The notes below the pieces were generated by a model. That model was not told the origin of the DNA. It made no database searches and worked only from the letters and a program-made list of their open reading frames with translations. Made by a program: the position numbers and the translations under genes. A stretch of DNA of 64,000 nucleotides from Candidatus Fermentibacterota bacterium (GTDB lineage: Bacteria; Fermentibacterota; Fermentibacteria; Fermentibacterales; JCC-6): contig CAWJQI010000005.1 in NCBI GenBank assembly GCA_963845085.1, positions 813,604 through 877,603 of the forward strand, read 5' to 3'. Positions 39,147 through 60,877 of the stretch are shown one piece after another (within the stretch, counting starts at the first letter, position 1; the number at the start of each line of letters is the position of its first letter).

Positions 39147-40385
39147 CTATCTGATGAAGAGCACCCTGGCGGATGCCTTCTGTTCAAGGTTTCGCAGCAC
39201 CACGAAATAAACGCCTGCCGCAAGATCGCTGCCCTGCGAATTCCTGCCGTCCCAGAAAGCGGTTTGCACGCCCGCCGGACAGCTGCCGAGTTCCTGCGCG
39301 TGAACAAGGCGGCCGGCAGTGTCATAGACTTCGAGGGTCGTTGCGGAAAGGCCCGGTGATTCAAACACAACCGAAGTACCGGTGCTGAAGGGGTTGGGCT
39401 GAACCGAAACGATCTCCAGCATGCAGGCGGATCCGCCCTCACCTGCTGAGTTCGTTATCTCCCTCAGACCGAGGCTGTGGTAGTTCCCCGCCGCGACTCC
39501 GACAAAAGACTCGTTCGGAGGGGGAACATCGCATTGAGCGTAATAGTTGTAGCCCCAGGCCGAAATGGTTCCGTCATTGCGCAGCCCCAGGCTGTGCGAA
39601 TCCCCCCCGACCGCCGAATTGAAACCCGTGTTTGGCGAGGGCACCTGGCACTGGCCGTACGAGTTGTAGCCCCAGGCGATGAGGGTTCCGTCAGCCTTGA
39701 GGCCGAAGCTGTGATCGGCCCCGCACCCGACCGCCACAAAACCCGTGTTGGGCCAGGGCACTTCACACTGGTCGTGCGCGTTGGAGCCCCAGGCGGCTAT
39801 CGTGCCGTCCGACCTGAGGCCGAGGTTGTGATGCGAACCGGCGGCTATGGCAATGAAACCCTCGTTGGGCTCGGGAACATCGCACTGGCCCATGTCGTTC
39901 CGGCCCCATGCCTCGATCGATCCGTTGTCCCTCAACCCCAGCGAGTGCTGGTAGCCGGCCGCAATTGCGATGAACGACTCGTTCGGTTCAGGCACGTTGC
40001 ACTGGCCGTACTCGTTGTAACCCCAGGCAACGATCGAGCCCGACTCCTTCAGGCCCAGGCTGAAAACCAGCCCGCCGGCAACCGCTTCGAAGCCTTCGTT
40101 GGGCTCGGGTACGTCGCACTGACCCACAATGTTGTAGCCCCAGGCGACAATCTCACCGCTTTGAAGCAGGCCCAGGCTGTGGCTGCCGCCCGCAGCGACC
40201 GCCACGAACCCCTCGTTGGGCTCGGGAACATCGCACTGGCCGTACTCATTGTTTCCCCATGCGAGAATCCCGCCGTTGTAGTCGGCTCCGGCAGCCCCGG
40301 AAAAAACAAGCACAAGAATCGGAACAAACGTCTTTTTAAACAGCCTTTTCACAACATGCCCTCCTGTTTTTGCATAATTCAGCAA
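39147..40385 (-). CDS. RCC1-like repeat protein with T9SS C-terminal sorting domain
   Basis: ~8 tandem ~34-aa units of the form (I/V)(V/A)AWG.N..GQCDVPEPNEGF(V/I)A(V/I)AAG..HSLGL. C-terminus QPNPFSTGTSVVF...VYDTAGRLV...AAGVYFVVLR...RVLFIR is a T9SS CTD. Confidence 0.7.
   Translation of the reverse strand: MLNYAKTGGHVVKRLFKKTFVPILVLVFSGAAGADYNGGILAWGNNEYGQCDVPEPNEGFVAVAAGGSHSLGLLQSGEIVAWGYNIVGQCDVPEPNEGFEAVAGGLVFSLGLKESGSIVAWGYNEYGQCNVPEPNESFIAIAAGYQHSLGLRDNGSIEAWGRNDMGQCDVPEPNEGFIAIAAGSHHNLGLRSDGTIAAWGSNAHDQCEVPWPNTGFVAVGCGADHSFGLKADGTLIAWGYNSYGQCQVPSPNTGFNSAVGGDSHSLGLRNDGTISAWGYNYYAQCDVPPPNESFVGVAAGNYHSLGLREITNSAGEGGSACMLEIVSVQPNPFSTGTSVVFESPGLSATTLEVYDTAGRLVHAQELGSCPAGVQTAFWDGRNSQGSDLAAGVYFVVLRNLEQKASARVLFIR
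39485..40280 (-). repeat. nucleotide-level tandem repeats (~100 nt period) encoding the RCC1-like units
   Basis: Recurring ...gtgccccgagcccaacgagggcttc... / ...gcctgggg(c/t)tacaac... blocks visible on the plus strand as reverse complements. Confidence 0.5.
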
Positions 40386-42778: not shown

Positions 42779-44401
42779 ATGAACGCCATTCTGCAGATTC
42801 CGAGGCCCGGCAACGAGCCGGTTCTGGACTACCGCCCCGGAAGCCCTGAGAGAGAGGCTTTGAGTGCTGCTCTCTCATCATTCCGTTCCTCACAAACGGA
42901 GATTCCGCTTCTTATCGGAGGCAGGGAGGTTCGGACGGGAAACCTCGGGGAATGCCATGTTCCTCATGATCATGGTCACAAACTGGGCGTTTTCCACAAG
43001 GCCGGGGCCGCCGAGGTCGCCCTTGCCGTGGAAGAGTCACAGAAGGCCTGGAAGACATGGTCGCGCACGCCGTGGGAGGAGCGGGCCGCAGTCTGTCTCA
43101 AGGCGGCTGAACTGGTTTCCAAAAGATTCCGGAACGTTATCAACGCCTCCACAATGCTCTGCCAGAGCAAAACCGTTCATCAGTCGGAGATAGATGCGGT
43201 TTGCGAGATGGCGGATTTCCTTCGGATGAACACTTGGTTCATGCAGCGGATCTATCAGATGCAGCCCGAGAACTTCGCCGCTACCTGGAACAGGCTTGAA
43301 TACAGGGCGCTTGAAGGCTTCGTGTTCGCCGTCTCGCCGTTCAATTTCACGTCGATCGGAGGCAATCTGTGCATGGCGCCGGCGCTTGCCGGGAACACCA
43401 TCATCTGGAAACCAGCCTCAACGGCAGTGTACTCGAACTGGGAACTGATGAAGGTGTTCCGTGAGGCCGGTCTTCCCGATGGAGTGATCAACTTCGTTCC
43501 CGGCGACTCGGGTGAAGTAGGACCCGCGGCACTTCTGGACCGCAGGCTTGCCGGAGTTCATTTCACCGGTTCGAACCGCGCCTTCAACAGCATGTGGAAA
43601 ACCGTGGCGGGAAACATCGACAGGTACAGGACCTATCCGAGAATCGTCGGGGAAACCGGCGGCAAGGATTTCGTTGTTGCGCACGCCTCGGCCGATGTGA
43701 GAGGCCTTGCAGCATGCCTGATCCGTGGAGCATTCGAGTTCCAGGGGCAGAAATGCTCGGCCACATCGAGGGCATACATCCCGAAATCGCTCTGGCCCTC
43801 CCTCAAAGATATCATGGCACAGGACCTGGCCACGGTTAAAACAGGTCCTGTCGAGGACTTCGGCAACTTCATCGGCGCGGTCATAGACAGGGCTTCCTTT
43901 GACAACATCCGTTCGTACATCGACTACGCCCGCAAATGCCCGGACTGCGAGATCGCCATGGGTGGCAGGTGCGACGACTCCACGGGCTATTTCGTCGAAC
44001 CCACTGTCGTTTTGACGACCGACCCTCACTGCAGGCTGATGGAAGAGGAGATCTTTGGCCCCGTCCTGACGGTTTTCCTCTACGATGAGGCCGGGTATGA
44101 CGATGTGCTCGAACTCTGTGACAGCACATCCCCATATGCCCTCACCGGAGGCGTCTTCGCAACCGACAGGGCCGCAGTCCGCCTTGCTGAGGAGAAACTT
44201 GTTCACGCAGCAGGCAACTTCTACATAAATGACAAGACAACAGGCGCGACTGTTGGTCACCAGCCATTCGGAGGAGGGCGCTCTTCCGGCACGAACGACA
44301 AGGCCGGCTCTATCTACAACCTGCTTCGATGGGTGAGCATCCGCACCCTGAAAGAGTGCTTCAACACAGCCAGGGACTTCAGGTACCCGTTCCTCGGGTG
44401 A
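42779..44401 (+). CDS. pruA: L-glutamate gamma-semialdehyde (1-pyrroline-5-carboxylate) dehydrogenase
   Basis: Aldehyde-dehydrogenase family (ETGGKDFVV, FEFQGQKCSATSR catalytic Cys region, FGPVLTV). ~540 aa with the N-terminal extension typical of RocA/PruA. Confidence 0.8.
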   Translation: MNAILQIPRPGNEPVLDYRPGSPEREALSAALSSFRSSQTEIPLLIGGREVRTGNLGECHVPHDHGHKLGVFHKAGAAEVALAVEESQKAWKTWSRTPWEERAAVCLKAAELVSKRFRNVINASTMLCQSKTVHQSEIDAVCEMADFLRMNTWFMQRIYQMQPENFAATWNRLEYRALEGFVFAVSPFNFTSIGGNLCMAPALAGNTIIWKPASTAVYSNWELMKVFREAGLPDGVINFVPGDSGEVGPAALLDRRLAGVHFTGSNRAFNSMWKTVAGNIDRYRTYPRIVGETGGKDFVVAHASADVRGLAACLIRGAFEFQGQKCSATSRAYIPKSLWPSLKDIMAQDLATVKTGPVEDFGNFIGAVIDRASFDNIRSYIDYARKCPDCEIAMGGRCDDSTGYFVEPTVVLTTDPHCRLMEEEIFGPVLTVFLYDEAGYDDVLELCDSTSPYALTGGVFATDRAAVRLAEEKLVHAAGNFYINDKTTGATVGHQPFGGGRSSGTNDKAGSIYNLLRWVSIRTLKECFNTARDFRYPFLG

Positions 44402-44407
44402 TCATGC

Positions 44408-44433
44408 GCGCGCCGGGCTTCGGCCCGGCGCGC
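44408..44433 (+). terminator. rho-independent terminator downstream of pruA
   Basis: GCGCGCCGGGC-TTCG-GCCCGGCGCGC perfect 11-bp stem starting 7 nt after the stop, followed by TTTCCTC. Confidence 0.6.
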
Positions 44434-44565
44434 TTTCCTCAATTGAAAACTTGTCAAAACGCCTTAACGATGAGGCCCACACCGAAGCAACAATCAGGCT
44501 CAGCGGATTGCTGTCACGCCCACCCAAAGCTTGGCGGCAATACCGCTGCAGCCGATAGTTGTGCT

Positions 44566-44841
44566 CTATCCTGAAAACAACTCGGAATGGGAACCTGCTC
44601 TTTCAAAGATCAGCATATCGCTTTCAATCTTATAGATAAGGAGCCAATCGGATTCCACATGGCATTCCCGTCTGCCGATATAACTGCCAACAAGCTGATG
44701 ATCCTTAAAGATCGGATCAAGTTTCTTCCCGGCGATCAACGACCTGGCAATCAGCTTGAATTGATCAATGTCTTTCCCCTGTTTTTCCGCAAGTTTGATG
44801 TCTTTTTTAAATTGCTTCGTGAAAACAGGACGATACATCAA
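44566..44841 (-). CDS. yafQ: type II toxin YafQ (RelE/ParE superfamily mRNA interferase)
   Basis: 91 aa. ...DHQLVGSYIGRRECHVESDWLLIYKIE... matches YafQ HxL.G...G.RECHI.PDWLLIY. Overlaps the upstream antitoxin gene by 4 nt. Lower-GC DNA. Confidence 0.8.
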   Translation of the reverse strand: MMYRPVFTKQFKKDIKLAEKQGKDIDQFKLIARSLIAGKKLDPIFKDHQLVGSYIGRRECHVESDWLLIYKIESDMLIFERAGSHSELFSG

Positions 44842-45104
44842 ATACCAAGCTTCTTGAACATGTCCTCCGCATTCTCGCAGAGAACAAGACCTTCACCGGA
44901 ATCGGTTTCATCCATCGTTCTCCTGGTAAGAGACGACGGTACAACCACATCAAAAGGCAGGCCGTTATTCATCTCTATCTGTTTGTAGTACAGTGTAATG
45001 GCTTGAGTTGTGGATAAGCCCAGACTCTGAAGGATTTCCTCTGCTTTTTCTTTAAGACTTGGTTCAAGCCTTGCTCTTACAGTAGCCGTCTTGCTCACAT
45101 TCAC
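44838..45104 (-). CDS. dinJ: antitoxin DinJ (RelB/DinJ family)
   Basis: 88 aa. N-terminal ribbon-helix-helix-like TVRARLEPSLKEKAEEILQSLGLSTTQAITLYYKQI. Immediately upstream of yafQ. Confidence 0.75.
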   Translation of the reverse strand: MNVSKTATVRARLEPSLKEKAEEILQSLGLSTTQAITLYYKQIEMNNGLPFDVVVPSSLTRRTMDETDSGEGLVLCENAEDMFKKLGI

Positions 45105-45175
45105 CTCGCTCTCATTTCGAATGTAGCTCGGTTAGGCTACATAGTCAAGCGATATAATCCGCACAACAAAGGTTG

Positions 45176-46267
45176 TTACTGCAATTCCATCATGTACACC
45201 AGAGGGTATAGCTCCGGGTTTTCAGGAAATGCAAGTATTCCCTCCCTGCCGACATGGAACCGCCAACGGTCACACTCCTGCCAGTCCGGCAGGCGCACGG
45301 TGCAGGTGAATGCGCGACTGCCTTCGGAGTCGAAAACATCGAATACCGGGTTCAGGTAGTCGCCTCTCAGAACCCAGAGCCTGCCTTCGCCGTCCATACC
45401 CATGCAGTCCACCATACAGAAGCACTCTGGCACCGTTATGGTAAAATCGACCGGGTTTCCGGTGGACCTGGTCCACATCGAATCGATGTACTCCATTTCA
45501 TCCTGAATCATTTCAGGTGGTTTCGGCTGCATGTGAACATCGGGAAGACGCATTTCCGTGATCAACTCCCCCTGAGTGGTGTAACCCTCGATCAGGTATT
45601 CATCAGCAACAGCTGCAGAAACGTAAACAATGCCGTCTGTTCCGGCTGATACAATGAAGTCGGCACCAAAAATGATCGGGTAGTGGGGGACAGTATTCTG
45701 GCAGAGGATCCTTTCAAGTGTGCCATCCCCTTCAAGCATCACCACCGCCTGCGTTACGGAATCCGAGTGATCCGGCATCAGGAACACTCCACAGAATTGT
45801 TCTCCCTGTACCGGGACGACCATGTGTGAAATCCCGTAGCCTGGGTCTTGAAGCTGAACCTCTCTTACGAAGCCCAGGGTATCGTCAAAAAGTACGACCT
45901 TTCTTTCCATTGCCCCGGCCTGAAGCCAGAATCCCCCCGTATTCGCGGGCACAACAAGCTTAACGTTCTGAAACTCGCCCGGACCGTTGCCGGCCAGCTG
46001 CCGCTGATGAAGACATTCACCAAGAGGAGAGAACATGAAGACTGTTTTCCGGGCTGCGTCGAGGACGACAAGATTTCCGTTGTCAATAATGCAGGCGGAA
46101 ATAACCGATCCAAACACAACCGGACCGGTTTCCGTACCAATTGAATCAATGACCGCAAGCTCCCGTTCCATCATCATGGAGGCCTGCTCTTGGTCGGCGC
46201 AGGCAAGAAGGCACATGATAAGAACAGGCAACAATTTGGCCGTTACTACAACTTGTGTCACGGACAT
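45176..46267 (-). CDS. six-bladed beta-propeller-like lipoprotein, unknown function
   Basis: ORF 45176..46309. Start moved to the ATG at 46267 (GAGAAGG RBS, lipobox LLAC). Low-GC island. Immediately downstream of the Cys-rich peptide ORF. Confidence 0.55.
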   Translation of the reverse strand: MSVTQVVVTAKLLPVLIMCLLACADQEQASMMMERELAVIDSIGTETGPVVFGSVISACIIDNGNLVVLDAARKTVFMFSPLGECLHQRQLAGNGPGEFQNVKLVVPANTGGFWLQAGAMERKVVLFDDTLGFVREVQLQDPGYGISHMVVPVQGEQFCGVFLMPDHSDSVTQAVVMLEGDGTLERILCQNTVPHYPIIFGADFIVSAGTDGIVYVSAAVADEYLIEGYTTQGELITEMRLPDVHMQPKPPEMIQDEMEYIDSMWTRSTGNPVDFTITVPECFCMVDCMGMDGEGRLWVLRGDYLNPVFDVFDSEGSRAFTCTVRLPDWQECDRWRFHVGREGILAFPENPELYPLVYMMELQ

Positions 46268-46333
46268 CACCTTCTCGTTATTGCGGTTGACATGAACTGC
46301 CGGCGCCACGCGTCAATCCCGTTACAGGAATTG

Positions 46334-46471
46334 TTAGAACTGCAGACAGAGATCGAACGGGAGGCACCAGAACGGCTCCGAGCACTGGAAAATCATGCTG
46401 CACTTGTGCCAACCACAGATCTGCTTGTTCGCCTGAAAAACGGGAACCGTTGTTCCAACAAAGATTTCCAT
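46334..46471 (-). CDS. candidate Cys-rich precursor peptide (45 aa)
   Basis: MEIFVGTTVPVFQANKQICGWHKCSMIFQCSEPFWCLPFDLCLQF. Not in the ORF track (<60 aa). ATG with AAAGGG 8 nt upstream. 5 Cys with hexad periodicity. Lies between the rSAM/SPASM gene and the beta-propeller lipoprotein gene, on the same strand. Confidence 0.45.
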   Translation of the reverse strand: MEIFVGTTVPVFQANKQICGWHKCSMIFQCSEPFWCLPFDLCLQF

Positions 46472-46652
46472 TTGTGTTGCCCTTTCTATGTCAGGTTTGG
46501 ACACAGGCCATAGTTACCGCAGTCAAACTCACCGCCGCACGAAAATGTCAGGCTGCATGCAAGAGCGTTGCACTGCTGTTTACCGATACCCCCCACGAGG
46601 GGAACACTTGATGAGACAATGACCTCCAAGGCAATCTCCCTTCAGAAGGACA

Positions 46653-47921
46653 CTATGGATGCTGTTCTTTGCTGCGCACATGCAGGTAATACTTCTCTCT
46701 AATGAATTGCTCGTATGAGGATTCGGAGAACAGGCAATCGGGTTCGGTTCCAAACACGTGGTTGTACGGGCAACCACCAGCACAGGCTGGAAGCATTTTG
46801 CAGTCATAGCACGTGCTGGAATTGTTATAGGGATTGAAGGCATCCCATTTCGCATGCGTCATTACAATGCTTCGGACATCAAGGCCATAAGGCATTTCAT
46901 ATCTTTGTGTTTCGTTGGATGCAACTTCTCGCCAGCACTTCGCGATTCGGCCATCCGGCAGAACAACGATGCCGCTCATGTTCGTTGCAGTGCAGCCCGG
47001 CTGTCTTACCCCCAGGCAGTAGCGTGACATAGTGTCAGCTCCAACACATTTTGTAAGAATGTCACGATCTGGTTCGGCGCAACTATGTTTTGGGTAGTTT
47101 TTAATGGCTGCCGGGTATACATGCACCTGTGAATTGCTGCTGAACAGGTTTTTAACGTACTGAAAACTGCCTGCGGTCTCTGAATCAACATTCACGCGCA
47201 CGTTGATCCTCATGTGTTTTGATGCGCTGACAATGTTCCTAACCACAGTACGGTACGTTTCAATGCCACCGATCAATGGTCTGTTCCTGTTATGCCTTTC
47301 TGGAGGCCCATCCAGTGTGACCTGAGCAGATGTGACACCTATTTTAGATAATATTTTTGCTGTTGCTTCCTCAAGCAGGAACCCGTTAGATATAATTTGT
47401 GCCTGAAATTCGCATCCTTCGATTGAGTTCATTTCTTCCAGCAAAAAAATGCAAACATCCAGGTTGCAAAGCGGCTCACCCCCATAGAGAGTTATGAATG
47501 CGGCTTCTGAACCAAATTGCCTGCAGGCTTCGGCGATTGAGGATGCGGTCGCTTTGCTCATCGAAACCGGATCAAGACGCTTTTCGGTTTCGTAGCAGTA
47601 CCGACAATCGAAGTTGCATATTGTTGTCATTACTGCCGTTACTGCAAACGTTCCCTTGTGCTTCGCATTATCTGTAAGGATTCTTAGGTATTGCCTCTCA
47701 TCGAATGTTCCAGGTATCAGTGCGCCCATCTCGCAAAGTGTTTGGAACGTTTGCTCATCCTGGAAATGCAGGTCATCGGGACAAAGTGTCGATGACATCA
47801 CCTTCTCGAGCATTCCCCTCTTCCTGTCGTCGACCACTTTTACAAGCGCACCCGTGAAGCCGTTGTAAATAAGAAGGTAATCGCCCTCATCCAGCCACCA
47901 GTTGTACTGCGATAACTTCAT
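46653..47921 (-). CDS. radical SAM/SPASM-domain peptide-modifying enzyme (anSME-like maturase)
   Basis: ORF 46653..47954. The ATG at 47921 (MKLSQYNWW) with a GGAAG RBS is the likely start. CNFDCRYC radical-SAM cluster motif ~110 aa from the N-terminus (N-terminal extension). GGEPL motif. C-terminal CYDCKMLPACAGGC (CX2CX5CX3C SPASM). Confidence 0.8.
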   Translation of the reverse strand: MKLSQYNWWLDEGDYLLIYNGFTGALVKVVDDRKRGMLEKVMSSTLCPDDLHFQDEQTFQTLCEMGALIPGTFDERQYLRILTDNAKHKGTFAVTAVMTTICNFDCRYCYETEKRLDPVSMSKATASSIAEACRQFGSEAAFITLYGGEPLCNLDVCIFLLEEMNSIEGCEFQAQIISNGFLLEEATAKILSKIGVTSAQVTLDGPPERHNRNRPLIGGIETYRTVVRNIVSASKHMRINVRVNVDSETAGSFQYVKNLFSSNSQVHVYPAAIKNYPKHSCAEPDRDILTKCVGADTMSRYCLGVRQPGCTATNMSGIVVLPDGRIAKCWREVASNETQRYEMPYGLDVRSIVMTHAKWDAFNPYNNSSTCYDCKMLPACAGGCPYNHVFGTEPDCLFSESSYEQFIREKYYLHVRSKEQHP

Positions 47922-48222
47922 GCTTCCCTGGTTTCCCATCACAATACTGCACAATTTTGTTCGAGTAAATCAGGAGATAGCCCATTAGTTTCAGAAGCGC
48001 ATTTTCCGGTTGGTGCTCTCCCCCTCTTGGTGGCCGCAATGCTTGTCATTCCGAAGGTTCTTCAGCCTTTCCAGTACATCCTTTATTCCAAGTACGGCCC
48101 TGGGTCCACAATTTTCAAGTCAGCAATGAATCCACCCTTGCATGAGGATTCGCTCAACACCGCTCTCCCCTTCCGCTTGACATGCACCCGAGAAGCCCGA
48201 ATAGTGGCCACAGGGGTAGTAG

Positions 48223-50595
48223 ATGGATGCAGGGGGAAGGGGAATCGAGCTGAACAACGAAAACGCCGAACTCAAGCGGCGCGTTGCTTCCCTTGAAATG
48301 CAGCTTGGAGAACTTCAGGCCGATCATCGCCGGCTGCTTGAAGTTGAATCCATTCTTGACAGGCTTGCTGAACTCACCAGGGCCATCTTTTGGGAGACCG
48401 ACGCCGAAGGGCTGTTTACAAGGATAAACGACCTTTCGGAACTGGTCATCGGTTACAAACCGGATGAGATCATTGGAAAGATGCACTTCTTCGACCTGTT
48501 CCCCGAAGAGGGGCGCGAAGAGTTCCGCCGCACAAGCATGGAAGCCTTTGCGAGGAAGGATTCCTTCCGCAACGTTGGAAACCCTGTTGTGACGCGTGAT
48601 GGCCGCATTCGCTGGCTTGTCACCAACGGCGTTCCCCTTCTCAACCCTGACGGAAGCCTCAGAGGGTACAGGGGGCTGGATGTTGATATCACCGAGAGAA
48701 AGGCGTCCGAAGAGGCGCTTCTTGTGAAGAACTACGTTTTCGACGTCTCCATCGCCGCCAACAGCATCTCCGACACGAACGGGCTTGTGACTGAGGTCAA
48801 CGATGCGTTCCTTCGAACATGGGGATATCCGGACCGTTCAGCAGTGATAGGGAAGGCATTCACAGACTTCCTCGCGCATCCCGATGTGGCCGACGGTTTC
48901 CGGGAGAGGCTGCTGAGGGAAGAGCAGTGGGAGGGGGACTACGAGGCCAGACGGATGGACGGTTCCACCTTCATAGCCCACGGCCTTGCCACCACGTTGA
49001 GGGACAAGTCGGGAATGCACATCGGTTATCAGTCATCGGTGATAGACATTTCCGAAACAAAACAGGTCGAGGGCCAGCTCAGGGAGAGCGAGGCCAGGAA
49101 CACGGCCATCCTCAACGCACTTCCGGATCTGATGTTCCTTCTCGACAGCGAGGGCTTTTTCGTTGACTTTCATACAGCCAGTGATGCCCAGCTTCTCATG
49201 CCGCCCGAGTTCTTCCTCGGCAAACGCATCCAGGATGTTCTTCCCGATGAAATCTGGAGGCCGACAGTCGCCCGCATCCAGTCCCTGCGCAACGGGCAGG
49301 AGACAACGCCCTTCAAATACGAGGCAAAAATGGGCGATGACACCAGATACTTCGAAAGCAGGCTTGTCTCCTGCGGAGATGACCGTTTCATGTCCATCGT
49401 CCGGGACATCACCGATCTGCGTCTCGGAGAACTCGAGCAGGAAAAGCTTCACGCCCAACTCAGGCAGGCGCACAAGATGGAGTCGGTCGGCAGGCTCGCC
49501 GGCGGGGTTGCCCACGACTTCAACAACATGCTGAGCGTGATCCTTGGCCATGTCGAGATGGCCATGGAGAAAACACCTCCTTCACATCCTGTCATGGCCG
49601 ACCTGCTTGAGATTCTGCAGAGCACTGAACGTTCCGCGGAACTCACACGGCAGCTTCTTGCGTTCGCCCGCAGACAGTCCGTATCACCCAGAGTCCTTGA
49701 TCTCAACTCCACTTTGAACGGCATGCTGAACATGCTCCGAAGGCTCATCGGCGAGGACATCGAGCTTCGCTGGTTTCCTGGCGGCGACCTGTGGCCTGTG
49801 CTGGTCGATCCCCCACAGATGAGCCAGATGCTTGCAAACCTTTGCATAAATGCACGACAGGCTCTGTCCGGTACCGGCCGGATCACGATCAAGACCGGCA
49901 ACGTCACCCTCGAGGACGATTTTTGCAGGGAGCACCCGGGTTCCCGAAAGGGCGACCATGTTCTGCTGGTCATCAACGACAACGGCTGCGGGATGGACAG
50001 AGAGATCATCGACCACATCTTCGAACCCTTCTTCACAACAAGGCAGCCGGGGCAGGGAACGGGGCTCGGGCTTTCGATGGTGTACGGAATAGTGAAACAG
50101 AGCAACGGCTACATCGATGTGGAGAGCGAGCCCGGGAAGGGAACGGAATTCAGGGTCTACCTTCCCAGAAGCAGAACACCCGTTCAGCCGCTTCTTGAAT
50201 CCGTCGACACGTCCGTCAGGCAGCGCGGAAACGAGACCATACTGCTCGTGGAGGACGAAAAGTCCATTCTCGAGATGGCGGGCATAATGCTGGAAAACCT
50301 CGGCTACACGGTTCTCTACGCCTCAACACCATCAATGGCGCTTGAACTCGCAAGGGAAAACCAGGGCAGCATCCGTCTCCTGATTACCGACGTCATCATG
50401 CCGGAACTCAATGGGAGGGATCTGGCCTGGAACCTCAGGAGGATAATTCCCGGCCTGAAATGTCTGTTCATGTCGGGCTACACATCCAACGTGATTGCGC
50501 ACCATGGCGTTCTGGACGAGGGAGTGCACTTCATTCCCAAGCCCTTTACCTCGAAGAAGCTGGCCGCAAGCGTGAGGAATGCATTGGGCGGGTAG
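48223..50595 (+). CDS. hybrid sensor histidine kinase (coiled-coil, PAS domains, HisKA-HATPase, C-terminal receiver)
   Basis: [14 protein letters not shown]-box. G-box [10 protein letters not shown]-terminal REC domain ([13 protein letters not shown]...[12 protein letters not shown]). Confidence 0.8.
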
Positions 50596-50753
50596 CCTCG
50601 CGTCAGTGCGAATACTTGGCGGGTTATTGACCCCGCCCGTCGGTCAACACTATCATTCTCAGCGGGAAAATGGTTTGTAGAGCTGCGCCGTCGGCCGGCA
50701 CTTGTGTCGCGCTCGTAACCGCGCATGCAGGCACTTCAGCAAGGGGGGAACGG

Positions 50754-51827
50754 ATGAAATCGGTTCTGCTTGTTCTTGTGGCTTTTGCAGCAATCCCCGG
50801 CGCCACTGTAATTGACCACACATGCACCGATCTTGAAAGTATTCCCGCCACCTGGATCGACCTTGTCCAGAGCACCATGAAAAGCCACTACGCGCACACC
50901 TCCCACGGCGGCCAGCTCACATACGGGCTGGAATTCGTCGAACAGGGCGATCCCGCATACGCCTATCTCGTCGGAAGCAGTTACCTGCCATCCTCATCGA
51001 CTGCTTACTGCGTCTTCGACGGTCAGGAGTCAGAAACCTACATCACCCCCGAGCTTTACTGGGAAAGTGCAGCGGGCATCCAGATGACAAGGGATGTTCT
51101 CAACCACAATCCAACCATCTGCACGTCGATGTGGAGCTGGTGCACCCAGTGCGACTACTACTCCCAGGAGCAGGTTCAGGACTACCTCGATGTGATGAGC
51201 CAGCTTGAAAGCGAGTTCCCCGACGTTACGTTCATCTACTTCACCGGCAACGCGCAGTCGGAGGGATCAAGCGGCTACAACAGACATTTGCGGAACGAGC
51301 AGATCCGGGCCTACTGCCAGAGCAACGACAAGGTTCTTTTCGACTTCGCCGACCTCGACTGCTGGTGGTTCAACCCGGCGACGCAGACCTGGGAGCAGAA
51401 CACCTACTCCTACGGGGGGAGCGCCGTCCCCTCCGAACACCCCCACTTCTCGGGCGACGAGTACGGCCATACAACAGCTGAGAGCTGCGAGCAAAAGGGC
51501 CGTGCGTGGTGGTACATGATGGCTTTGCTTGCCGGCTGGTCGGGAACGGGGATCTCGGGACCCGCTGAAGGTCTCCTCCCTGCCGCCGTGACCGTATCCC
51601 CCAACCCGTCATCCGGCGTTTCATGCATTACCGTCGATCTCGCTTCCTCCGGGCGGGTGCGCGTGAGCGTGCTCGATCTCGCGGGAAGGGTTGTATACGA
51701 GTCCGACTCCACGCTCGAGAAAGGCATGCACACGTTCCCCGTCGTTCTCGGGCAGAGCGGCGTCTTCCTTGTCTCTGTCGAAGCGGGTGCCGAACGGCAC
51801 ATTTCAAGGCTTGTCACACTGGAATGA
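50754..51827 (+). CDS. secreted protein with T9SS C-terminal sorting domain
   Basis: ORF 50670..51827. Start moved to the ATG at 50754 (AAGGGGGG RBS, signal peptide MKSVLLVLVAFAAIPGA). C-terminus VSPNPSSGVSCITVDL...VSVLDLAGRVVYES...GVFLVSVE...RLVTLE. Confidence 0.65.
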   Translation: MKSVLLVLVAFAAIPGATVIDHTCTDLESIPATWIDLVQSTMKSHYAHTSHGGQLTYGLEFVEQGDPAYAYLVGSSYLPSSSTAYCVFDGQESETYITPELYWESAAGIQMTRDVLNHNPTICTSMWSWCTQCDYYSQEQVQDYLDVMSQLESEFPDVTFIYFTGNAQSEGSSGYNRHLRNEQIRAYCQSNDKVLFDFADLDCWWFNPATQTWEQNTYSYGGSAVPSEHPHFSGDEYGHTTAESCEQKGRAWWYMMALLAGWSGTGISGPAEGLLPAAVTVSPNPSSGVSCITVDLASSGRVRVSVLDLAGRVVYESDSTLEKGMHTFPVVLGQSGVFLVSVEAGAERHISRLVTLE

Positions 51828-51911: not shown

Positions 51912-53951
51912 ATGAAAGGCTTGAAACGTTTGCCTTCGTTCCTCCGCCGATGGGAGACCATCTGCTTGCTGCTCGGAGTGGCTCTCCTCGCAGCGGCGCC
52001 CCTTCTCGAGGAACGCATGCAGGACGAAAGAGCATCCGGGATCATCTTCACAGCGGGGCTTCTTCTTACGATGGTGGCCTGCACAGCCCTTGCAGTACGC
52101 CTGCTCAGGCTTCTGGCAGGGCTTCTTTTCCACAGGGTGCGCAGCAGGATAATAGCCAACTATGTGCTCACCGGCGTGCTCCCGCTGCTGCTGGTGTTCA
52201 TGCTTGTAGCCTCGCTTTCCCATTTCTTCATGCTTCAGCTTGCCAGCACCCAGCTGAAACAGGCCATCGAACGAGAGTTTCTTCGCCTCGAGGCTGCGGC
52301 CGTCAGAAGCTCCTACCTCGTCAACGAGTCCACTGACACTCTGAGCGCCGAATGCCGAGGGTTCCTTGAACGCGAGTATGCAGGCTTCAGGCTTGCCGTG
52401 ACTGATTCATCGGGAACAGGTGACTCCCTCACAAGCCTGACTGTGGGAAGGTTACGCTACGTCCCGGCTTGCGATTCTCTTCAGGGATCGTTCCTTGTAA
52501 TGCAGGACACGGTTTTCCTGGCAGTGTCGGTTCCCGCGGGCGCATGTCCGGGCGGCAGACCCCTTGTGCTGGCGGTTCCGATACGGGGCAGGCTTCTCGA
52601 GGAGATTGAGCGCGAACTCGGCGGGAACTGCATGTTCTCCTACGGCACCGGCATCACCGATGAACAACCCGAGCCCGGGAGGGGTTCCCTAAACTTCCAG
52701 ATCAGCGCAGGACCCGAAGGCTCATCTGGCTTCAGCTTCACCCAGTCGTCGGATCTGGAACGCAGGGTAAACGAGTGGACAATGGCCCAGCCGGACGGGT
52801 TTCCCCACATCATCTCCTACTCCCTCAATGCAGGTTTCCTTGTGGATGATGAAGGCATGGCCAGCGAGGTGATGGTCCTCGGCCTGGTCAGCACAACGTA
52901 CACATTCGTTGCCGGAAGGATCATTCAGGGAGCGATTCCCGAGGACGTGCCCATGAAGAGGGTGTTCCTGTGGGGAGCGATCATTCTCGCCGCGATCTTC
53001 AGCGCGATCGAACTGGTTGCGCTCATAATCAGCCTGGTGCTCTCGCGCTCCATCACGAAAACCATCGCCCAGCTTCACAAAAAGGCGGATTGTGTGGCCA
53101 GGGGTGACTTTTCATACCGGATCAACTCGGAGCGGAAGGACCAGCTCGGCCTTCTCGCAAACTCGTTCGACAGAATGTCTGACTCGCTCGAGCTTCTTCT
53201 CGAACAGGTGAAGGAGAAGGAGAGGATCGAGCATGAGCTTGCCATAGCCCAGGAAGTGCAGCGGATTTTCTTCCCGAAGAGCTTCCCCGAGGTCAACGGG
53301 ATCAGCCTGCTCGGAAGGTGCCTGCCCGCCCGGATGGTCTCGGGTGACTACTACGACTGCATTCCCCACCAGGAGGGGATGATAGACTTCTTCATCGGCG
53401 ACATCAGCGGCAAGGGAATCTCGGCCGCGCTGCTCATGGCGGGCTCCCAGACTTTTCTGAGATCGGAGGCCGCAAGGCGCCCTCTTCCACCGGTAACCCG
53501 GATCGTGGAAAGCTTCAACAAGTACCTTGTCCAGTACAGCGCCGAGGGCAAGTTCTCGTCGCTCTTCTATGGAAGGCTCGATCCGGCGAAACGAACCCTC
53601 ACCTGCTGCAACGCGGGCCATCCCAGACCGTTCCTCTTCAGACGCGGTGTCGTGACCGAATTGACGGTGGGCGGCCTCATCCCGGGTGTGCTGCCAACAG
53701 CCCCCTACGGGGAGGAAACGATCCAGCTTGAAGAGGGGGACCTTCTTGTGGCATTTACGGACGGCTTTACCGAGGCATTCAACCCCGATGATCAGGAGTT
53801 CGGAGAGAAGCGCCTCTCGGATACGGTCGAAGCATATCTGAAGGAAAGCCTGGAAGGCATCTGCGACCATCTCGTCAAGACCATAGACAGCTGGTCGGCC
53901 GCCCGTGTCCAGGCCGATGACATGACGATCTTTCTTGTGAGGGTGGGATAA
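51912..53951 (+). CDS. membrane sensor with HAMP domain and PP2C-type (SpoIIE/RsbU-like) serine phosphatase domain
   Basis: TM segments. HAMP-like LSRSITKTIAQLHKKADCVARGDFSYRI. PP2C motifs (ELAIAQEVQ, GDYYD, FFIGDISGKGISAAL, DGFTEA). Confidence 0.75.
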   Translation: MKGLKRLPSFLRRWETICLLLGVALLAAAPLLEERMQDERASGIIFTAGLLLTMVACTALAVRLLRLLAGLLFHRVRSRIIANYVLTGVLPLLLVFMLVASLSHFFMLQLASTQLKQAIEREFLRLEAAAVRSSYLVNESTDTLSAECRGFLEREYAGFRLAVTDSSGTGDSLTSLTVGRLRYVPACDSLQGSFLVMQDTVFLAVSVPAGACPGGRPLVLAVPIRGRLLEEIERELGGNCMFSYGTGITDEQPEPGRGSLNFQISAGPEGSSGFSFTQSSDLERRVNEWTMAQPDGFPHIISYSLNAGFLVDDEGMASEVMVLGLVSTTYTFVAGRIIQGAIPEDVPMKRVFLWGAIILAAIFSAIELVALIISLVLSRSITKTIAQLHKKADCVARGDFSYRINSERKDQLGLLANSFDRMSDSLELLLEQVKEKERIEHELAIAQEVQRIFFPKSFPEVNGISLLGRCLPARMVSGDYYDCIPHQEGMIDFFIGDISGKGISAALLMAGSQTFLRSEAARRPLPPVTRIVESFNKYLVQYSAEGKFSSLFYGRLDPAKRTLTCCNAGHPRPFLFRRGVVTELTVGGLIPGVLPTAPYGEETIQLEEGDLLVAFTDGFTEAFNPDDQEFGEKRLSDTVEAYLKESLEGICDHLVKTIDSWSAARVQADDMTIFLVRVG

Positions 53952-54940: not shown

Positions 54941-55201
54941 TCATTTGTCGGCCATGGCGATGATCATCACCATGCCTGCCATGAGAATGATTGCCGCTGC
55001 AATGCCCGCGACGATGCAACTGAGCCTGGATCTCTGCGGGTACTCCATCTTTTCGTTATCGCCTGAAGCCTGAGGGATCGGGAGTTCCTCGGCCTGCAGC
55101 ATCACCCCGCAGTTGGGGCACTCCTTTGAGGCGCTGACAAACACGATCTTCTCGCACGAAGGGCACTTGGCAAAACTCACGTCTCCATCACCTCTTTCCA
55201 T
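54941..55201 (-). CDS. zinc-ribbon protein with C-terminal TM helix
   Basis: ORF 54941..55237; the ATG at 55201 is the likely start. CPSCEK...CPNCG zinc ribbon, then hydrophobic IVAGIAAAIILMAGMVMIIAM. Overlaps the 3' end of the rSAM gene by ~25 nt. Confidence 0.5.
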   Translation of the reverse strand: MERGDGDVSFAKCPSCEKIVFVSASKECPNCGVMLQAEELPIPQASGDNEKMEYPQRSRLSCIVAGIAAAIILMAGMVMIIAMADK

Positions 55202-56220
55202 CCGGCGTTGTGAACCTCGGGACAACCTGCATCGCAATCATATCGCTTTTCGCATGCGCCGCAGAAAGCAGGCATTCCGAACGTTCCAAGGGCGAAGTTC
55301 CTCCAGCGGGGATGCGAGGAGGCCTTCCTCCATTCCGTATGGTGGGCGATGCGCACACGGGAGTGGTTGCATACCCTGAGATAGCCCGATGGATCAATGG
55401 CGAAAAAGGTCTTTACCGCACTGCAGCGATACCCCACATGCAGCTTCCTGAGATCGGAAAGCCCCTCTACGCAAACCGGGAACTCGGTGCCGGTTGCCCC
55501 CGGAACACCCGATGCCACAAGCACGTCATCCGCGATGCGGATCATCTCCGAGAGGTCCCTCATATCCAGGGAAAGCTCGCCGATGTGCTTAAGCCCGCGC
55601 CCCCCGGGCAGGAAACGGTTCAAAAGAACCTGGCCGGCCCCGGCAAGGATCGCAGCGCTCATCGTCTCATAGAGTTCGAAAAGGTTCTTTTTTGTGACCG
55701 TGATGTTGGCAGTGGTTTTGACCCCGGCCTTCTTCGCCCTGCCGAAAAGGCCCAGGATCATCTCTGCGCCGGGATGCCCAGTATGCCATTCGTAGGTTGA
55801 AAGACCGGGCAGGCTGAGGCTGAGGGAAACTCCGAGACCGGAAAGCTCCCTGAGTACGGCTGAGGTGACCGTCCTGCCGTTTGAGAGAAGTGTGACCGTG
55901 GGTTGAACGCTTCTTGCGGCAAGCACACCGTCCACCTCCTCAACCAGCTCCACCTGCCGGTTGCGGGCGTGGGCAACCAGTTCGAGGCAGTCTTTCCGCA
56001 GCAGCGACTCGCCCCCTGTGAAGCCGAAGGAACTCACCCCCAGACCGCAGAGGGTGTCGATGAGACCCTTCCACTCCTGTGTGTCCATTTCCGGAAGCCT
56101 GGGGAAGTCATCACCGTACTCCCATGGGCATGAGCAGTACCTGCAGACGTGGTTGCACATGTAGGTGAGCTCAAGCACCGCCATCGATGGCAGGAAGGAG
56201 GGCGCTGCGACCCGGTTCAT
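55177..56220 (-). CDS. radical SAM/SPASM-domain enzyme (anSME/QhpD-like, no N-terminal RRE)
   Basis: CNHVCRYCS radical-SAM motif at residues ~22-30. GGESLL motif. C-terminal CGACEKRYDCDAGC (CX2CX5CX3C SPASM). Its ATG overlaps the upstream paralog stop (ATGA). Confidence 0.8.
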   Translation of the reverse strand: MNRVAAPSFLPSMAVLELTYMCNHVCRYCSCPWEYGDDFPRLPEMDTQEWKGLIDTLCGLGVSSFGFTGGESLLRKDCLELVAHARNRQVELVEEVDGVLAARSVQPTVTLLSNGRTVTSAVLRELSGLGVSLSLSLPGLSTYEWHTGHPGAEMILGLFGRAKKAGVKTTANITVTKKNLFELYETMSAAILAGAGQVLLNRFLPGGRGLKHIGELSLDMRDLSEMIRIADDVLVASGVPGATGTEFPVCVEGLSDLRKLHVGYRCSAVKTFFAIDPSGYLRVCNHSRVRIAHHTEWRKASSHPRWRNFALGTFGMPAFCGACEKRYDCDAGCPEVHNAGWKEVMET

Positions 56221-58730: not shown

Positions 58731-59585
58731 ATGAGTACGGAGAAAAACGTTGAGATGCTGGTCAGACCCGCCACTTCCGCCGATCTGCCGGGTCTTGAGG
58801 AGATATCAAGGCTCACCTGGGACGGGTACGACTACCTTGACCAGGTCGCTGGCGACTGGATAAGCGAGGGAAATCTCTTCACCGGGATATCCGACGGCAG
58901 AGTCGTGGCCTGCGCCCGGTTCACAAGGGTGCCGGGGGACATCCTGTGGCTCGAGGGGTTGAGGGTTCACCCCGACTACAGGGGACGGGGGTACGGCAGG
59001 ACGATCAGCGAACACATCCTGGAGCAGTGCAGAAAGCTTGTGGAGTCTCGCGAGGCCAGGGGCATAGAGTTCTCGACCTACTCGCTCAACGCCGAGAGCC
59101 GGGGGCTTTCCGAGAAGCAGGGCTTCAGGGTCACGGAATGGTTCCACATCCTCTACCGCGAAGGGATGCCCGCCGCCCTCTGCGGCATCGAGCCCTACGA
59201 ACCGGTCATCGAGGATTTCTCGATTTACCCGGAAAGGGTCTCGGTGGGGTGGAAGTATGCCCGCTGGCATGAACCGGGTTTCCTCGACTGGTTCAGGAGC
59301 GTGGCGCGGGCCTGGCGCACCGAGACGGGCGCAACCTTCCTCACAAGCCTGAGGGACGACGAAGCCTCGCCGCTCGCCTCCGCCTTTTCAGACAAGGATG
59401 GATTCTTCAACGGTCTGCGTGCATTTGCATCGCTGCATGCAAGAACAAACCTGGAGCTCTTCCTGCACGATTCGATGAAGGACATGATTGCTGCGGCTAA
59501 AACCCACGGCTGGGGCTACTGGGAGAATCCTGACAGCTCGAATGTGCCGGTGTATTCATTCGGGGAATCACCAGACTCAGAATGA
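58731..59585 (+). CDS. GNAT-family N-acetyltransferase
   Basis: Acetyl-CoA-binding motif region VHPDYRGRGYGRTI. Divergent from the paralog operon. Confidence 0.7.
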   Translation: MSTEKNVEMLVRPATSADLPGLEEISRLTWDGYDYLDQVAGDWISEGNLFTGISDGRVVACARFTRVPGDILWLEGLRVHPDYRGRGYGRTISEHILEQCRKLVESREARGIEFSTYSLNAESRGLSEKQGFRVTEWFHILYREGMPAALCGIEPYEPVIEDFSIYPERVSVGWKYARWHEPGFLDWFRSVARAWRTETGATFLTSLRDDEASPLASAFSDKDGFFNGLRAFASLHARTNLELFLHDSMKDMIAAAKTHGWGYWENPDSSNVPVYSFGESPDSE

Positions 59586-60329
59586 TGCCCGGTGAATGAG
59601 CGACAGGCTTGTCTTGTTATAGTGTCCATCGATGCCTTCAGGTGGAATGACGACTCTGGATAACGTTCTTGAGCCGTCGAGGGATAGCCGGTCGGTGAGA
59701 TGAAGCCAATCTGATTTCTGCAGCGAGTTTTGCCGAACATTATGACCGCCAGGCCAAGAGCGCCTGCTCCAGGTTGTATCTGTTGTACTGCTCGGGCGAA
59801 TGGATGTTGTTGATCGGCACAAGCAACTATAACTTGATACAAAGCAAGATTATTCGGCTCCAGCTCCTTCTCCGCACCCGTTCCTAACAATTCGGTTCGT
59901 TCCTATTCCAGCTAATCTTTTCCTCCCGTCCCACTCAATCCGTTGAGTCTTCGGAAAACACCTTGTAGTATTCGTGCTTGATATGATCACTAATTACCGG
60001 GATTCTTTGTCCCATTCGGGTTCAAACACCAGTCGAACCACCCGTCCCTGATCTCCTAAGGCTACTTCTGTGCATTCCACCATGTACTATATTGCATAAT
60101 ATGGCACGTTTCAATTAGCCTCTGTGCAATTTTAACAAACACAGGTTATTAGTCTGTTACAGTACCGTAACAATTCCCGAATTGCATTTGGTGGTTCTGT
60201 CACATGTAAATGCATAGTCAATACTGCTTTGGATCAGTCTCTACGTTTGGAATATTTAGCTACTTGACGTTAGTGTAAGGTTGTTGTATTCAATTTATGT
60301 GATTTTTACTCTTGGATAGGAGGTTGAGT

Positions 60330-60800: not shown

Positions 60801-60877
60801 CTATCCGGTTTATGGCCGGTATCTGTGTCATGCAGATACCGGCTTTTCTCTTGGACTTCAGAAAGCAAAGTGCTTTA

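Follow-up and report, generated by a model that had tools for sequence, protein, structure and literature searches.

A 3.8-kb stretch of low GC content lies beside pruA in the 64,000-nt window (the whole stretch of DNA that was analysed), raising the question whether it is of foreign origin and which of its genes work together. The first-pass annotation had put its GC content by eye at ~45–50% with flanks of ~62%; computation gave 49.8% (0.498) for the island and 59.2% (0.592) for the rest of the window, and corrected the flanks to ~58–59%. The drop is significant: no other stretch of this length in the window has a lower GC content (z = −5.8 relative to non-overlapping windows), and by tetranucleotide distance the island departs from the remaining sequence with z = 8.0. 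GC3 is 0.46–0.60 in the four protein-length island genes compared with 0.70 in both pruA and the PAS kinase, while the two short peptide ORFs show values of 0.58 and 0.70. As annotated before, all island genes lie on the minus strand (Table 1). The island showed neither mobility genes nor flanking repeats, and it gave no match to plasmids or phages. Related clusters in three other loci (L020, L007 and L008, see below) are likewise low-GC islands, and L020, whose pruA is 71% identical to that of the window, has, likewise just downstream of pruA with one gene in between, another version of the system that runs in the opposite orientation and whose rSAM is 31% identical. The composition statistics, the islands in these loci and the pruA-side version in L020 support a horizontal origin. 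The hairpin at the left edge was not reported by a simple terminator scan. In the divergent intergenic region a promoter scan gave a match on the plus strand only, at 48177-48205, and none for the minus-strand operon.

Table 1. Features of the low-GC island and its edges
Feature	Position	Strand	Details
Low-GC island	44402-48222	-	all genes on minus strand
GC-rich hairpin	44406..44433	.	GCGCGCCGGGC-cgaa-GCCCGGCGCGC; island left edge, between convergent pruA and yafQ; read from sequence
YafQ/RelE-family toxin	44566..44841	-	PF15738 106.8 bits (7e-31); TIGR02385 76.4 bits
DinJ/RelB antitoxin	44838..45104	-	TIGR02384 56 bits (3e-15; cutoff 45.65); PF04221
Six-bladed NHL/DUF5128-like beta-propeller lipoprotein	45176..46267	-	363 aa; lipobox LLAC, Cys23
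Precursor peptide B, second position	46334..46471	-	45 aa; five Cys; ATG start; MEIFVGTTVPVFQANKQI-CGWHKCSMIFQCSEPFWCLPFDLCLQF
Precursor peptide A, first position	46486..46629	-	47 aa; TTG start; MEVIVSSSVPLVGGIGKQQ-CNALACSLTFSCGGEFDCGNYGLCPNLT
RRE + radical SAM + SPASM peptide maturase	46653..47921	-	422 aa from ATG
Divergent intergenic region, maturase operon/PAS histidine kinase	47922..48222	.	presumed operon promoter; from sequence

The radical SAM (rSAM)/SPASM identity proposed for the maturase was borne out, as every canonical motif is present. The enzyme matches PF04055 at 1e-16 and carries CNFDCRYC at residue 102, GGEP at residue 147 and the full 7-Cys SPASM pattern (C310-x13-G-x4-C329, C371-x2-C-x5-C-x3-C384, C396); the catalytic and SPASM Cys motifs are all conserved in the window enzyme and nine relatives. 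The ATG start (MKLSQYN) suits the homologs better than the upstream TTG, a start at the TTG at 47954 being possible. In an AF2 model (pLDDT 92.3) the protein is predicted to adopt a CteB-like RRE + rSAM + SPASM fold, with CteB (5WHY/5WGG) as the top Foldseek match over the full length including an N-terminal three-strand/three-helix domain. The ~100 N-terminal residues pointed out earlier are the RRE-type leader-binding domain usual for such enzymes and no special extension.

The best NCBIfam matches of the maturase are FlmE/OhkG (NF052473), TIGR04463, Clo7bot (TIGR04334), CefB ‘Cys-every-fifth’ (NF038107) and the geopeptide maturase (TIGR04280), with E-values of 1e-38 to 1e-48 and alignments from residue 12. 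These nearest named families are all Cys-rich-peptide maturases with the same domain plan (N-terminal leader-binding domain, rSAM core, SPASM) and, judging by their NCBIfam names, act on short Cys-rich precursors encoded adjacently; more distant database relatives of the window enzyme (25–29% identity) are TIGR04463 or Clo7bot members in 65/108 and 61/108 cases. However, scores of 137–165 bits are far below the cutoffs of 400–600, so the enzyme is a member of none of these families. Its precursors match no model, and it has a conserved propeller-lipoprotein partner; no propeller was seen in the one context read outside the clade, that of the relative L021, identity-ranked just below it. Among the sactipeptide and ranthipeptide maturases (CteB/SCIFF, PapB/freyrasin, AlbA, SkfB), CteB is the best structural match, over the RRE, rSAM and SPASM domains, PapB and the SCIFF maturase also appear as sequence matches, and the substrates of this group likewise combine a conserved leader with regularly spaced core Cys residues. 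However, the sequences are only weakly similar (87 bits for PapB with a cutoff of 340, 44 bits for SCIFF with a cutoff of 425), leader and Cys pattern differ, and known clusters of this kind contain no propeller lipoprotein. An assignment as anSME was rejected: the model scores 46.8 bits (cutoff 349), no sulfatase lies near the gene, and the enzyme falls among Cys-peptide maturases that carry an RRE.

Between the rSAM and propeller genes, the first-pass annotation had described one 45-aa five-Cys ORF, 181 nt after the rSAM stop. Its position is exact, but the supposed spacer encodes a second precursor, peptide A. Both ORFs have Shine-Dalgarno sites, for peptide A an AAGGGAG 6 nt upstream of the TTG. 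Peptide A shows a Cys spacing of 4,5,5,5 and, like other first-position peptides, a 19-aa leader; the 18-aa leader of peptide B is typical for second-position peptides. With a family HMM we obtained 67.8 bits (E 2e-19) for peptide A and 67.6 bits for peptide B, and the sequence of peptide A recurs identically on an independent Logan contig (L015). The family, including A and B, has the leader MEI/V-I/V...V/I-P and the spacing C-x4-C-x5-C-x5-C(-x5-C) in common; across 12 members from 7 loci, the leader and the invariant 4,5,5(,5) spacing are kept at 23–40% identity. In the family alignment (A3), P10, C19, C30 and C36 are invariant, and C24 and F34 nearly so. Searches with A and B against NCBIfam and Pfam matched no family, in agreement with the earlier statement that the peptide is unrelated to known precursors, and we found neither an NCBIfam/Pfam model nor a paper describing the peptide family or its propeller partnership. 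We infer that A and B are the substrates of the maturase; the chemistry is probably thioether formation. Cys-rich peptides could be modified by other routes, which counts against this chemistry. As acceptor residue, the conserved Phe that precedes the third and fourth Cys by two positions is no more than a candidate.

We compared the window with rSAM relatives of 31–50% identity at nine distinct loci, a small sample of ~10 distinct loci in total, all from metagenomes. One or two Cys peptides lie beside the rSAM gene at 9/9 of these loci, so that each has at least one small Cys ORF. A DUF5128/NHL-type six-bladed propeller lipoprotein adjoins the rSAM gene wherever the contig reaches: neighbouring genes for the rSAM, the peptide(s) and the propeller occur in the window, L001/2, L003, L004/11, L007, L008/9, L018, L019 (propeller upstream, in a rearranged gene order) and L020, over cluster GC contents of 37–61%, and the short contig L005 stops before the propeller position. 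In three loci (L003, L019 and L020) an MsbA-like exporter without a peptidase domain adjoins the cluster. The stretch looks foreign and carries a real, apparently undescribed peptide-modification operon. On all three points on which the first-pass annotation had made such a system depend (a significant GC difference, small ORFs at homologous loci, an rSAM enzyme distinct from anSMEs beside sulfatases) the results came out in its favour.

The presence of a six-bladed beta-propeller-like lipoprotein was also confirmed. Its lipobox is conserved across the propellers, and fold searches returned generic NHL propellers only, with no function indicated. The wider family of DUF5128 (PF17170)/NHL lipoproteins, large in the FCB-group Ca. 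Fermentibacteria and Aegiribacteria, shares its fold, the repeat signature DSIG...GxGPGEF, the lipobox and a helix inserted after blade 4 at ~25–28% identity. Most of these propellers occur without peptides or rSAM, for example beside glnA, or alone beside housekeeping genes in the one context that we read (L016/L017); the fold must therefore have a function that does not need peptides. Orphan propellers without peptides or a SPASM enzyme (L006, L010-L014) can be likened to orphan immunity genes. In contrast to the wider family, propellers of the cluster-linked clade are distinctive in that their C-terminal third is conserved and the rest hypervariable: among close-clade propellers the mean identity is 74% over residues 285–363 but 28–33% over residues 101–245, and the strongly conserved C-terminal motif F.C.V.LPDWQECDRWRF contains two Cys residues. 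Several cluster-linked propellers (the second copy in L003, the first copies in L007/L008) lack the motif Cys.

Propeller and peptides travel and diversify together in related bacteria. L007 and L008 carry extra peptide(s)+propeller cassettes, and a comparison of the two, whose flanking proteins are 90–95% identical, gave 90.7% identity for the rSAM enzyme and 91% for propeller 1 but 41.5% for peptide 2 and 53.9% for propeller 2. The block of 90% DNA identity ends inside peptide 1 and resumes only in the C-terminal third of the propeller, and one peptide has a 100% identical leader with a diverged core. Two close relatives with ~90% identical maturase and flanks hence differ strongly in hypervariable peptide cores and in an equally hypervariable stretch covering the first two-thirds of the propeller. 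Such hypervariability could also stem from surface exposure (phage or predator pressure) instead of peptide specificity. Bacteriocin-immunity pairs, including LanI-type lipoprotein immunity and hypervariable specificity loci, offer a comparison: there, too, a peptide gene or gene pair has its own partner gene behind it, cassettes are duplicated, leaders are conserved and cores variable, orphan partner genes occur and clusters lie in compositional islands. However, the propeller is related to known immunity proteins neither in sequence nor in fold.

We consider it fairly probable that the island contains a horizontally acquired RiPP operon working as follows. Two short precursors, A and B, would be made, and their conserved ME(I/V)(I/V)...(I/V)P leader would be recognised by the N-terminal RRE domain of the maturase. 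The rSAM/SPASM core (one SAM cluster, two auxiliary clusters) would then cross-link the 25–28-residue cores at the C-x4-C-x5-C-x5-C-x5-C cysteines, most probably through Cys-derived thioether rings like those of sactipeptides or ranthipeptides. The conserved lipobox and the adjacent exporters of the three relatives point to a site of action outside the cytoplasm, and we infer that the peptides are exported. Neither an exporter nor a leader peptidase was found in the island or in the window segments checked; an MsbA-like ABC exporter would have to lie elsewhere in the window's genome. Each peptide set may be recognised extracytoplasmically by its cognate propeller lipoprotein, which would probably serve in specific binding or self-immunity towards a two-peptide antimicrobial. 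We know of no 360-aa propeller acting as an immunity protein, which counts against the immunity reading.

An unlikely alternative, though one with a precedent, is that the cross-linked, exported Cys peptide binds tightly to the periplasmic propeller as its structural or cofactor-bearing subunit, in which case each cassette would stand for one heteromeric protein and not for a toxin-immunity pair. To our knowledge, no case other than the Qhp system (QhpD rSAM, QhpC small thioether subunit, QhpB beta-propeller, QhpF exporter) has been described in which an rSAM/SPASM-cross-linked small Cys peptide works with a beta-propeller outside the cytoplasm. Locally, the rSAM gene is followed by small peptide and propeller, and in L020 then by an ABC exporter, an order similar to qhpD-C-B...F; peptide and propeller genes are paired as cassettes, and their joint divergence could be interface co-evolution. 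In quinohemoprotein amine dehydrogenase (QHNDH), the small gamma subunit receives its Cys-to-Asp/Glu thioethers from QhpD and joins a beta-propeller subunit in the assembled enzyme (PMC8172795). QhpD is among the NCBIfam matches of the maturase, but at 59 bits (cutoff 453) the two are not homologous at family level. Moreover, a dihaem alpha subunit, the QhpE protease and the QhpG flavoprotein are absent, the peptides reach only half the length of QhpC and lack the conserved Trp needed for CTQ (a Trp quinone is impossible in peptide A), and the propeller is a lipidated six-bladed NHL protein and not of the QhpB type. Hypervariability between close relatives is not expected of enzyme subunits, nor does a propeller family mostly found without peptides fit such an assembly.

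It is also rather doubtful that the propeller tailors or processes the exported peptide as a periplasmic enzyme of the RiPP pathway (leader removal, lyase, amidating or disulfide handling). NHL and six-bladed propellers do include the peptide-processing or -cleaving PAL and virginiamycin B lyase, which the fold searches returned as well; for 9/14 family members the best NCBIfam match, though a weak one, is ScyF, an NHL protein from the scytonemin pathway, and the cluster has no other leader peptidase candidate. However, conservation among 84 family members mostly concerns Gly, Pro and hydrophobic positions of the NHL repeats, and no metal or catalytic constellation can be recognised; a tailoring enzyme would not usually come as one copy per peptide cassette and diverge to ~54% identity between close relatives, and L003 has two propellers for one peptide.

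That the rSAM enzyme modifies the lipoprotein itself, the small ORFs being non-functional or regulatory, is very improbable: anSME-type SPASM enzymes, which modify exported proteins such as sulfatases prior to export, are among the sequence and fold matches of the maturase and close-clade propellers keep the two motif Cys, but these Cys are missing from the copies named above, the anSME score is far below cutoff, the maturase carries an RRE-type domain, and small ORFs with conserved leaders, fixed Cys spacing and ribosome-binding sites occur at ~10 loci. A chance neighbourhood of an rSAM-peptide RiPP pair and a functionally unrelated propeller in a variable island, as the related propellers standing alone in housekeeping contexts might suggest, is already disfavoured and hardly credible given the adjacency in every locus examined, despite the rearrangement in L019, and the duplications that copy peptide and propeller jointly.

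The DinJ-YafQ pair, which had been counted as part of the system, is a genuine toxin-antitoxin pair but an independent passenger in the same island. We saw no relatives of it beside the homologous clusters, and upstream of dinJ it has its own promoter-like site (TTGACT-17-TACATT at 45148-45120), with a palindrome atgtagc-N8-gctacat; it is therefore a neighbour and not a component. The yafQ start overlaps the dinJ stop by 4 nt, and the GC content of yafQ (0.424) is the lowest in the island.

The first-pass annotation had described an abrupt drop in GC content, from flanks of ∼62%, after pruA and a recovery at the start of the PAS-kinase gene. In a sliding profile the GC content does fall from ∼0.58 to 0.43–0.52 at 44400–48200 and comes back up at the PAS-kinase start, but the flanks lie at ∼59% and not 62%. 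The island (44402–48222) has a GC content of 0.498 versus 0.592 for the remaining window (z = −5.8), is the lowest-GC 3.8-kb stretch of the window and is also distant from the rest in tetranucleotide composition (z = 8.0). GC3 values are 0.46–0.60 in the four protein-length island genes and 0.58 and 0.70 in the short peptide ORFs, compared with 0.70 in pruA and the PAS kinase. The island therefore deviates from its host in GC content, tetranucleotides and lower GC3. As annotated, yafQ, dinJ, the lipoprotein gene, a 45-aa ORF and the radical SAM (rSAM) gene all lie on the minus strand. A search of the island edges revealed no direct or inverted flanking repeats and no nearby tRNA (the window's only one is located at 2441), no integrase or transposase gene is found among the island's ORFs, and neither the propeller protein against plasmids nor the island DNA against phages gave a match. 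A known defence system was rejected as the identity of the island: PADLOC yielded just generic viperin-type rSAM similarity.

Positions of the features discussed, in the window and in loci compared with it
Feature	Sequence	Position	Strand	Remarks
T9SS sorting-domain protein	window	39147–40385	−	RCC1 repeats, FlgD-Ig domain
yafQ	window	44566–44841	−	PF15738
dinJ	window	44838–45104	−	TIGR02384
Region before dinJ	window	45105–45175		palindrome
Lipoprotein gene (propeller)	window	45176–46267	−	lipobox judged by eye
Five-Cys ORF, 45 aa (peptide B)	window	46334–46471	−
Second precursor ORF (peptide A)	window	46486–46629	−	TTG start; Cys-pattern six-frame scan
Radical SAM gene (maturase)	window	46653–47921	−
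PAS hybrid histidine kinase	window	48223–50595		divergent from maturase operon
T9SS sorting-domain protein	window	50670–51827	+
HAMP-SpoIIE (PP2C phosphatase) protein	window	51912–53951	+
Second radical SAM protein	window	55177–56220	−	347 aa; PF04055 1e-17
Second low-GC stretch	window	59500–61000		GC 0.43–0.48 (1-kb windows)
162-aa ORF	window	60312–60800	+	apparent signal peptide
Other version of the system	L020	3056–10581
First peptide	L007	6335–6463
First peptide	L008	6336–6464
102-aa Cys-rich peptide	L021	7280–7588

The DinJ–YafQ pair proved to be a genuine type II toxin–antitoxin (TA) module (TIGR02384, 56 bits, cutoff 45.65; PF15738, 106.8 bits, cutoff 30), with dinJ directly upstream of yafQ and a 4-nt overlap. 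It has the lowest GC content within the island. Since it accompanies no related cluster, we rejected it as a component of the system and regard it as a passenger. The palindrome before dinJ, atgtagc-N8-gctacat, overlaps a promoter-like TTGACT-17-TACATT and is plausible as a predicted operator for TA autoregulation.

The assignment of the maturase to the radical SAM enzymes is well founded: it carries CNFDCRYC at 102 (CX3CX2C) and GGEP at 147, and scores 61.8 bits with PF04055 (cutoff 29.5). The SPASM seven-Cys pattern CX9-15GX4C...CX2CX5CX3C...C (two auxiliary clusters) is complete (C310...G324-x4-C329, C371-C374-C380-C384, C396), and this signature, CNFDCRYC and GGEP are invariant in a 108-sequence alignment. 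The AF2 model (pLDDT 92.3) consists of three strands followed by three helices (residues 7–65), the rSAM barrel and the SPASM domain. A Foldseek search with this model returned CteB, a thioether-forming SCIFF maturase, as the best PDB match over the entire length (447 columns), followed by TigE, anSME, SuiB and ChlB. An N-terminal extension of ∼100 aa had been remarked upon; there is indeed a domain, but the strand/helix layout and the whole-length match to CteB indicate the ordinary leader-recognition domain of the class, modelled as PqqD-like (RRE). The best NCBIfam models all score far below their cutoffs: FlmE/OhkG (164.5 bits, cutoff 500), TIGR04463 (145.9, cutoff 525), Clo7bot (137, cutoff 600), CefB (‘Cys-every-fifth’; 136.3, cutoff 600) and the geopeptide maturase (132.3, cutoff 400). 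Database relatives at 25–29% identity are TIGR04463 or Clo7bot members and only four database clusters exceed 40%; on these grounds sequence comparison places the window maturase in a separate small sister clade. Grouping with the anSMEs found next to sulfatases had been named as evidence against a peptide-modifying role. This reading was rejected, as the TIGR03942 score is 46.8 bits against a cutoff of 349 and no sulfatase gene occurs in the island or the homologous loci. The second radical SAM protein of the window, 7 kb from the island, is unrelated.

Downstream of the maturase gene a five-Cys ORF of 45 aa had been annotated after a gap of 181 nt. The ORF stands, but the gap itself codes for a second precursor, peptide A, which reads MEVIVSSSVPLVGGIGKQQCNALACSLTFSCGGEFDCGNYGLCPNLT, has AAGGGAG 6 nt upstream of its start and recurs on the independent short-read assembly L015. 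Peptides A and B share an ME(I/V) N-terminus, V-P at positions 9–10 and K-Q ahead of their first Cys, and in both the Cys are spaced C-x4-C-x5-C-x5-C-x5-C. The maturase is thus adjoined by short precursors with a conserved leader and Cys core. A canonical family of 12 peptides from seven loci, 23–40% identical to peptide B, retains P10 and every one of the four core Cys; Cys3 and Cys4 are each preceded, at position −2, by an aromatic residue. Leaders comprise 19 aa in first-position and 17–18 aa in second-position peptides. An HMM of these 12 peptides found no further member in the 64-kb window or beside orphan propellers. That the peptide is unrelated to known precursors held true in NCBIfam, where there was no match even at E ≤ 10, and a two-sequence profile gave 0 matches at E ≤ 0.001 among 1.84 billion representative proteins; such peptides are too short or seldom called as genes. 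Variant Cys peptides are found beside the maturase in L007/L008, L019 and L020. The first peptide of L007 and L008 has a different core, C-x3-C-x6-C-x-C, is acidic and ends in WPF; its paired propeller is divergent yet well conserved.

The small Cys ORF is kept beside the rSAM gene in every clade locus whose context was read (31–50% identity), and the co-occurrence of Cys ORF, propeller and rSAM that the first-pass annotation had proposed to look for in metagenomes was found in all tabulated loci that extend to the propeller position. This evidence base comprises ∼10 metagenomic loci.

Gene order in loci related to the window operon, with rSAM identity to the window maturase
Locus	rSAM identity	Layout
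L001, L002	48%	rSAM, one peptide, propeller
L003	50%	divergent ABC exporter; rSAM, one peptide, two propellers
L004, L005, L011	50%	rSAM, two peptides in tandem, propeller (not reached by L005)
L018	43%	rSAM, one peptide, propeller
L007	33%	rSAM, variant peptide, propeller; second cassette with two peptides and a propeller
L008, L009	34%	layout of L007 plus third peptide–propeller cassette
L019	34%	propeller, rSAM, variant Cys peptide, convergent ABC exporter
L020	31%	rSAM, variant Cys peptide, propeller, ABC exporter

The association stops at the relative next by E-value (P0013, locus L021), also ∼31% identical, which is accompanied by a 102-aa peptide and no propeller. This peptide, located after the rSAM gene, is highly Cys-rich with repeated CGGxxC-type motifs, and the locus looks like a different Cys-peptide system. 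The ABC proteins encoded at the relatives' loci are half-transporters resembling MsbA and have no peptidase domain; in the window no exporter adjoins the operon, and no leader peptidase turned up in the segments checked.

The six-bladed propeller lipoprotein was likewise borne out, a confident AF2 model predicting six blades of NHL-type fold with an inserted helix at residues 251–269. The lipobox, MSVTQVVVTAKLLPVLIMCLLAC, follows [LVI][ASTVI][GAS]C, and its Cys is nearly invariant in 84 relatives. With PF17170 (DUF5128) the protein scores 21.4 bits, just under the cutoff of 22.9, and 10 of 14 propeller relatives match this family at E ≤ 0.1 (best 6.7e-10). A profile search recovered >100 related ‘6-bladed beta-propeller’ proteins; those with an organism name all belong to Ca. 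Aegiribacteria, Fermentibacteria or Sabulitectum, and the one whose context was read is solitary and adjoins glnA. Profile scans of genomes and of metagenomes gave only three loci each. Orphan propellers at L006, L010 and L012–L014 are 48–51% identical to the window protein, and neither a Cys peptide nor a SPASM enzyme is encoded within 7 kb of them. At L006 the orphan gene is preceded by those for an unrelated radical SAM protein (371 aa) and a spermine-synthase-like protein (748 aa). In Bacteroidales, small NVEALA proteins pair with six-bladed propellers, a possible lead.

We compared amino-acid identities between the close relatives L007 and L008. Flanking proteins are 90–95% identical, the rSAM enzymes 90.7%, the first peptides (pep0) 97.6% and the first propellers 91.1%. 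For the second cassette, the values are 67% for the first peptide (leader identical, core diverged), 41.5% for the second peptide and 53.9% for the propeller. At the DNA level, a block of 90% identity breaks off inside the first cassette peptide and restarts only within the final third of the gene for the propeller, and the third cassette of L008 is preceded by a duplicate of the cassette upstream region and leader. Six close-clade propellers have a mean identity of 74% at residues 285–363 and only 28–33% at residues 101–245. Conserved ends around a variable segment of peptide core and propeller are what would be expected of specificity cassettes exchanged by recombination. Tentatively, and as a possibility rather than a probability, rSAM-cross-linked two-peptide ligands or toxins and lipoprotein propellers may form a polymorphic specificity system that co-diversifies by cassette exchange, with the conserved leader/upstream region and the conserved propeller C-terminus as recombination handles, and that serves strain-specific immunity or envelope recognition in FCB-group bacteria.

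The evidence best fits a RiPP operon whose RRE-rSAM-SPASM enzyme would cross-link two leader-bearing Cys peptides, most likely through thioethers, as the CteB-like fold and the families closest to the enzyme suggest. Outside the cytoplasm the products would then encounter the propeller lipoprotein cognate to them. For the propeller we favour specific binding or immunity; this view draws on the pairing in cassettes, on hypervariability, on partner genes that occur as orphans, on the presence of two peptides and on the island context. The leading alternative is a complex resembling QHNDH, with the cross-linked peptide incorporated as a propeller subunit. QHNDH is a precedent for a cross-linked peptide as a subunit with a propeller, as described in a sactipeptide review (PMC8172795). 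However, the maturase scores 59 bits as a QhpD against a cutoff of 453, the loci contain no qhpA (dihaem), qhpE or qhpG genes, and peptide A is devoid of Trp, which CTQ needs in the small subunit. A role of the propeller as a periplasmic tailoring factor is a weaker alternative, as is the propeller itself being the rSAM substrate.

The clusters of L020, L007 and L008 likewise lie 7–12 GC points under their flanks. L020 carries a pruA 71% identical to that of the window and, one gene (DUF2259) downstream, a different version of the system in opposite orientation, also as a low-GC island; its peptide reads MNIISDAVAIGENGEVSTNKGCVWNCGCQCSNGNSNP. A different version so close to a related pruA suggests a replaceable locus, and the pruA-side site may be an exchange hotspot.

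Cys peptides modified by rSAM/SPASM enzymes are a quickly expanding source of cross-link chemistry and narrow-spectrum antimicrobials. The enzyme class of the maturase is already known. In contrast, neither the precursor family and sister-clade maturase, nor a co-diversifying propeller-lipoprotein partner for any RiPP class, was found in NCBIfam, Pfam, PADLOC, PDB or the literature searched. The clade offers a precursor family whose strictly spaced Cys pattern is new, a two-peptide arrangement and a conserved propeller partner from uncultured, little-studied FCB-group (Fermentibacteria-like) bacteria. Should the propeller prove to be a cognate binder or to confer immunity, it would provide the first function for a large domain-of-unknown-function family and a compact model of peptide–receptor co-evolution (four genes, ∼3 kb). 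A polymorphic specificity system, if real, would be a new RiPP partner class and give DUF5128-type propellers their first function.

Elsewhere in the window, the second low-GC stretch is mostly without long ORFs and holds a 162-aa ORF with no Pfam match. The right neighbour of the island, the PAS hybrid kinase, is followed downstream by the HAMP-SpoIIE protein. Two proteins with C-terminal sorting domains of type IX secretion (T9SS), one of them bearing RCC1 repeats, fit an FCB-group diderm host, in agreement with the propeller relatives stemming from Fermentibacteria/Aegiribacteria.
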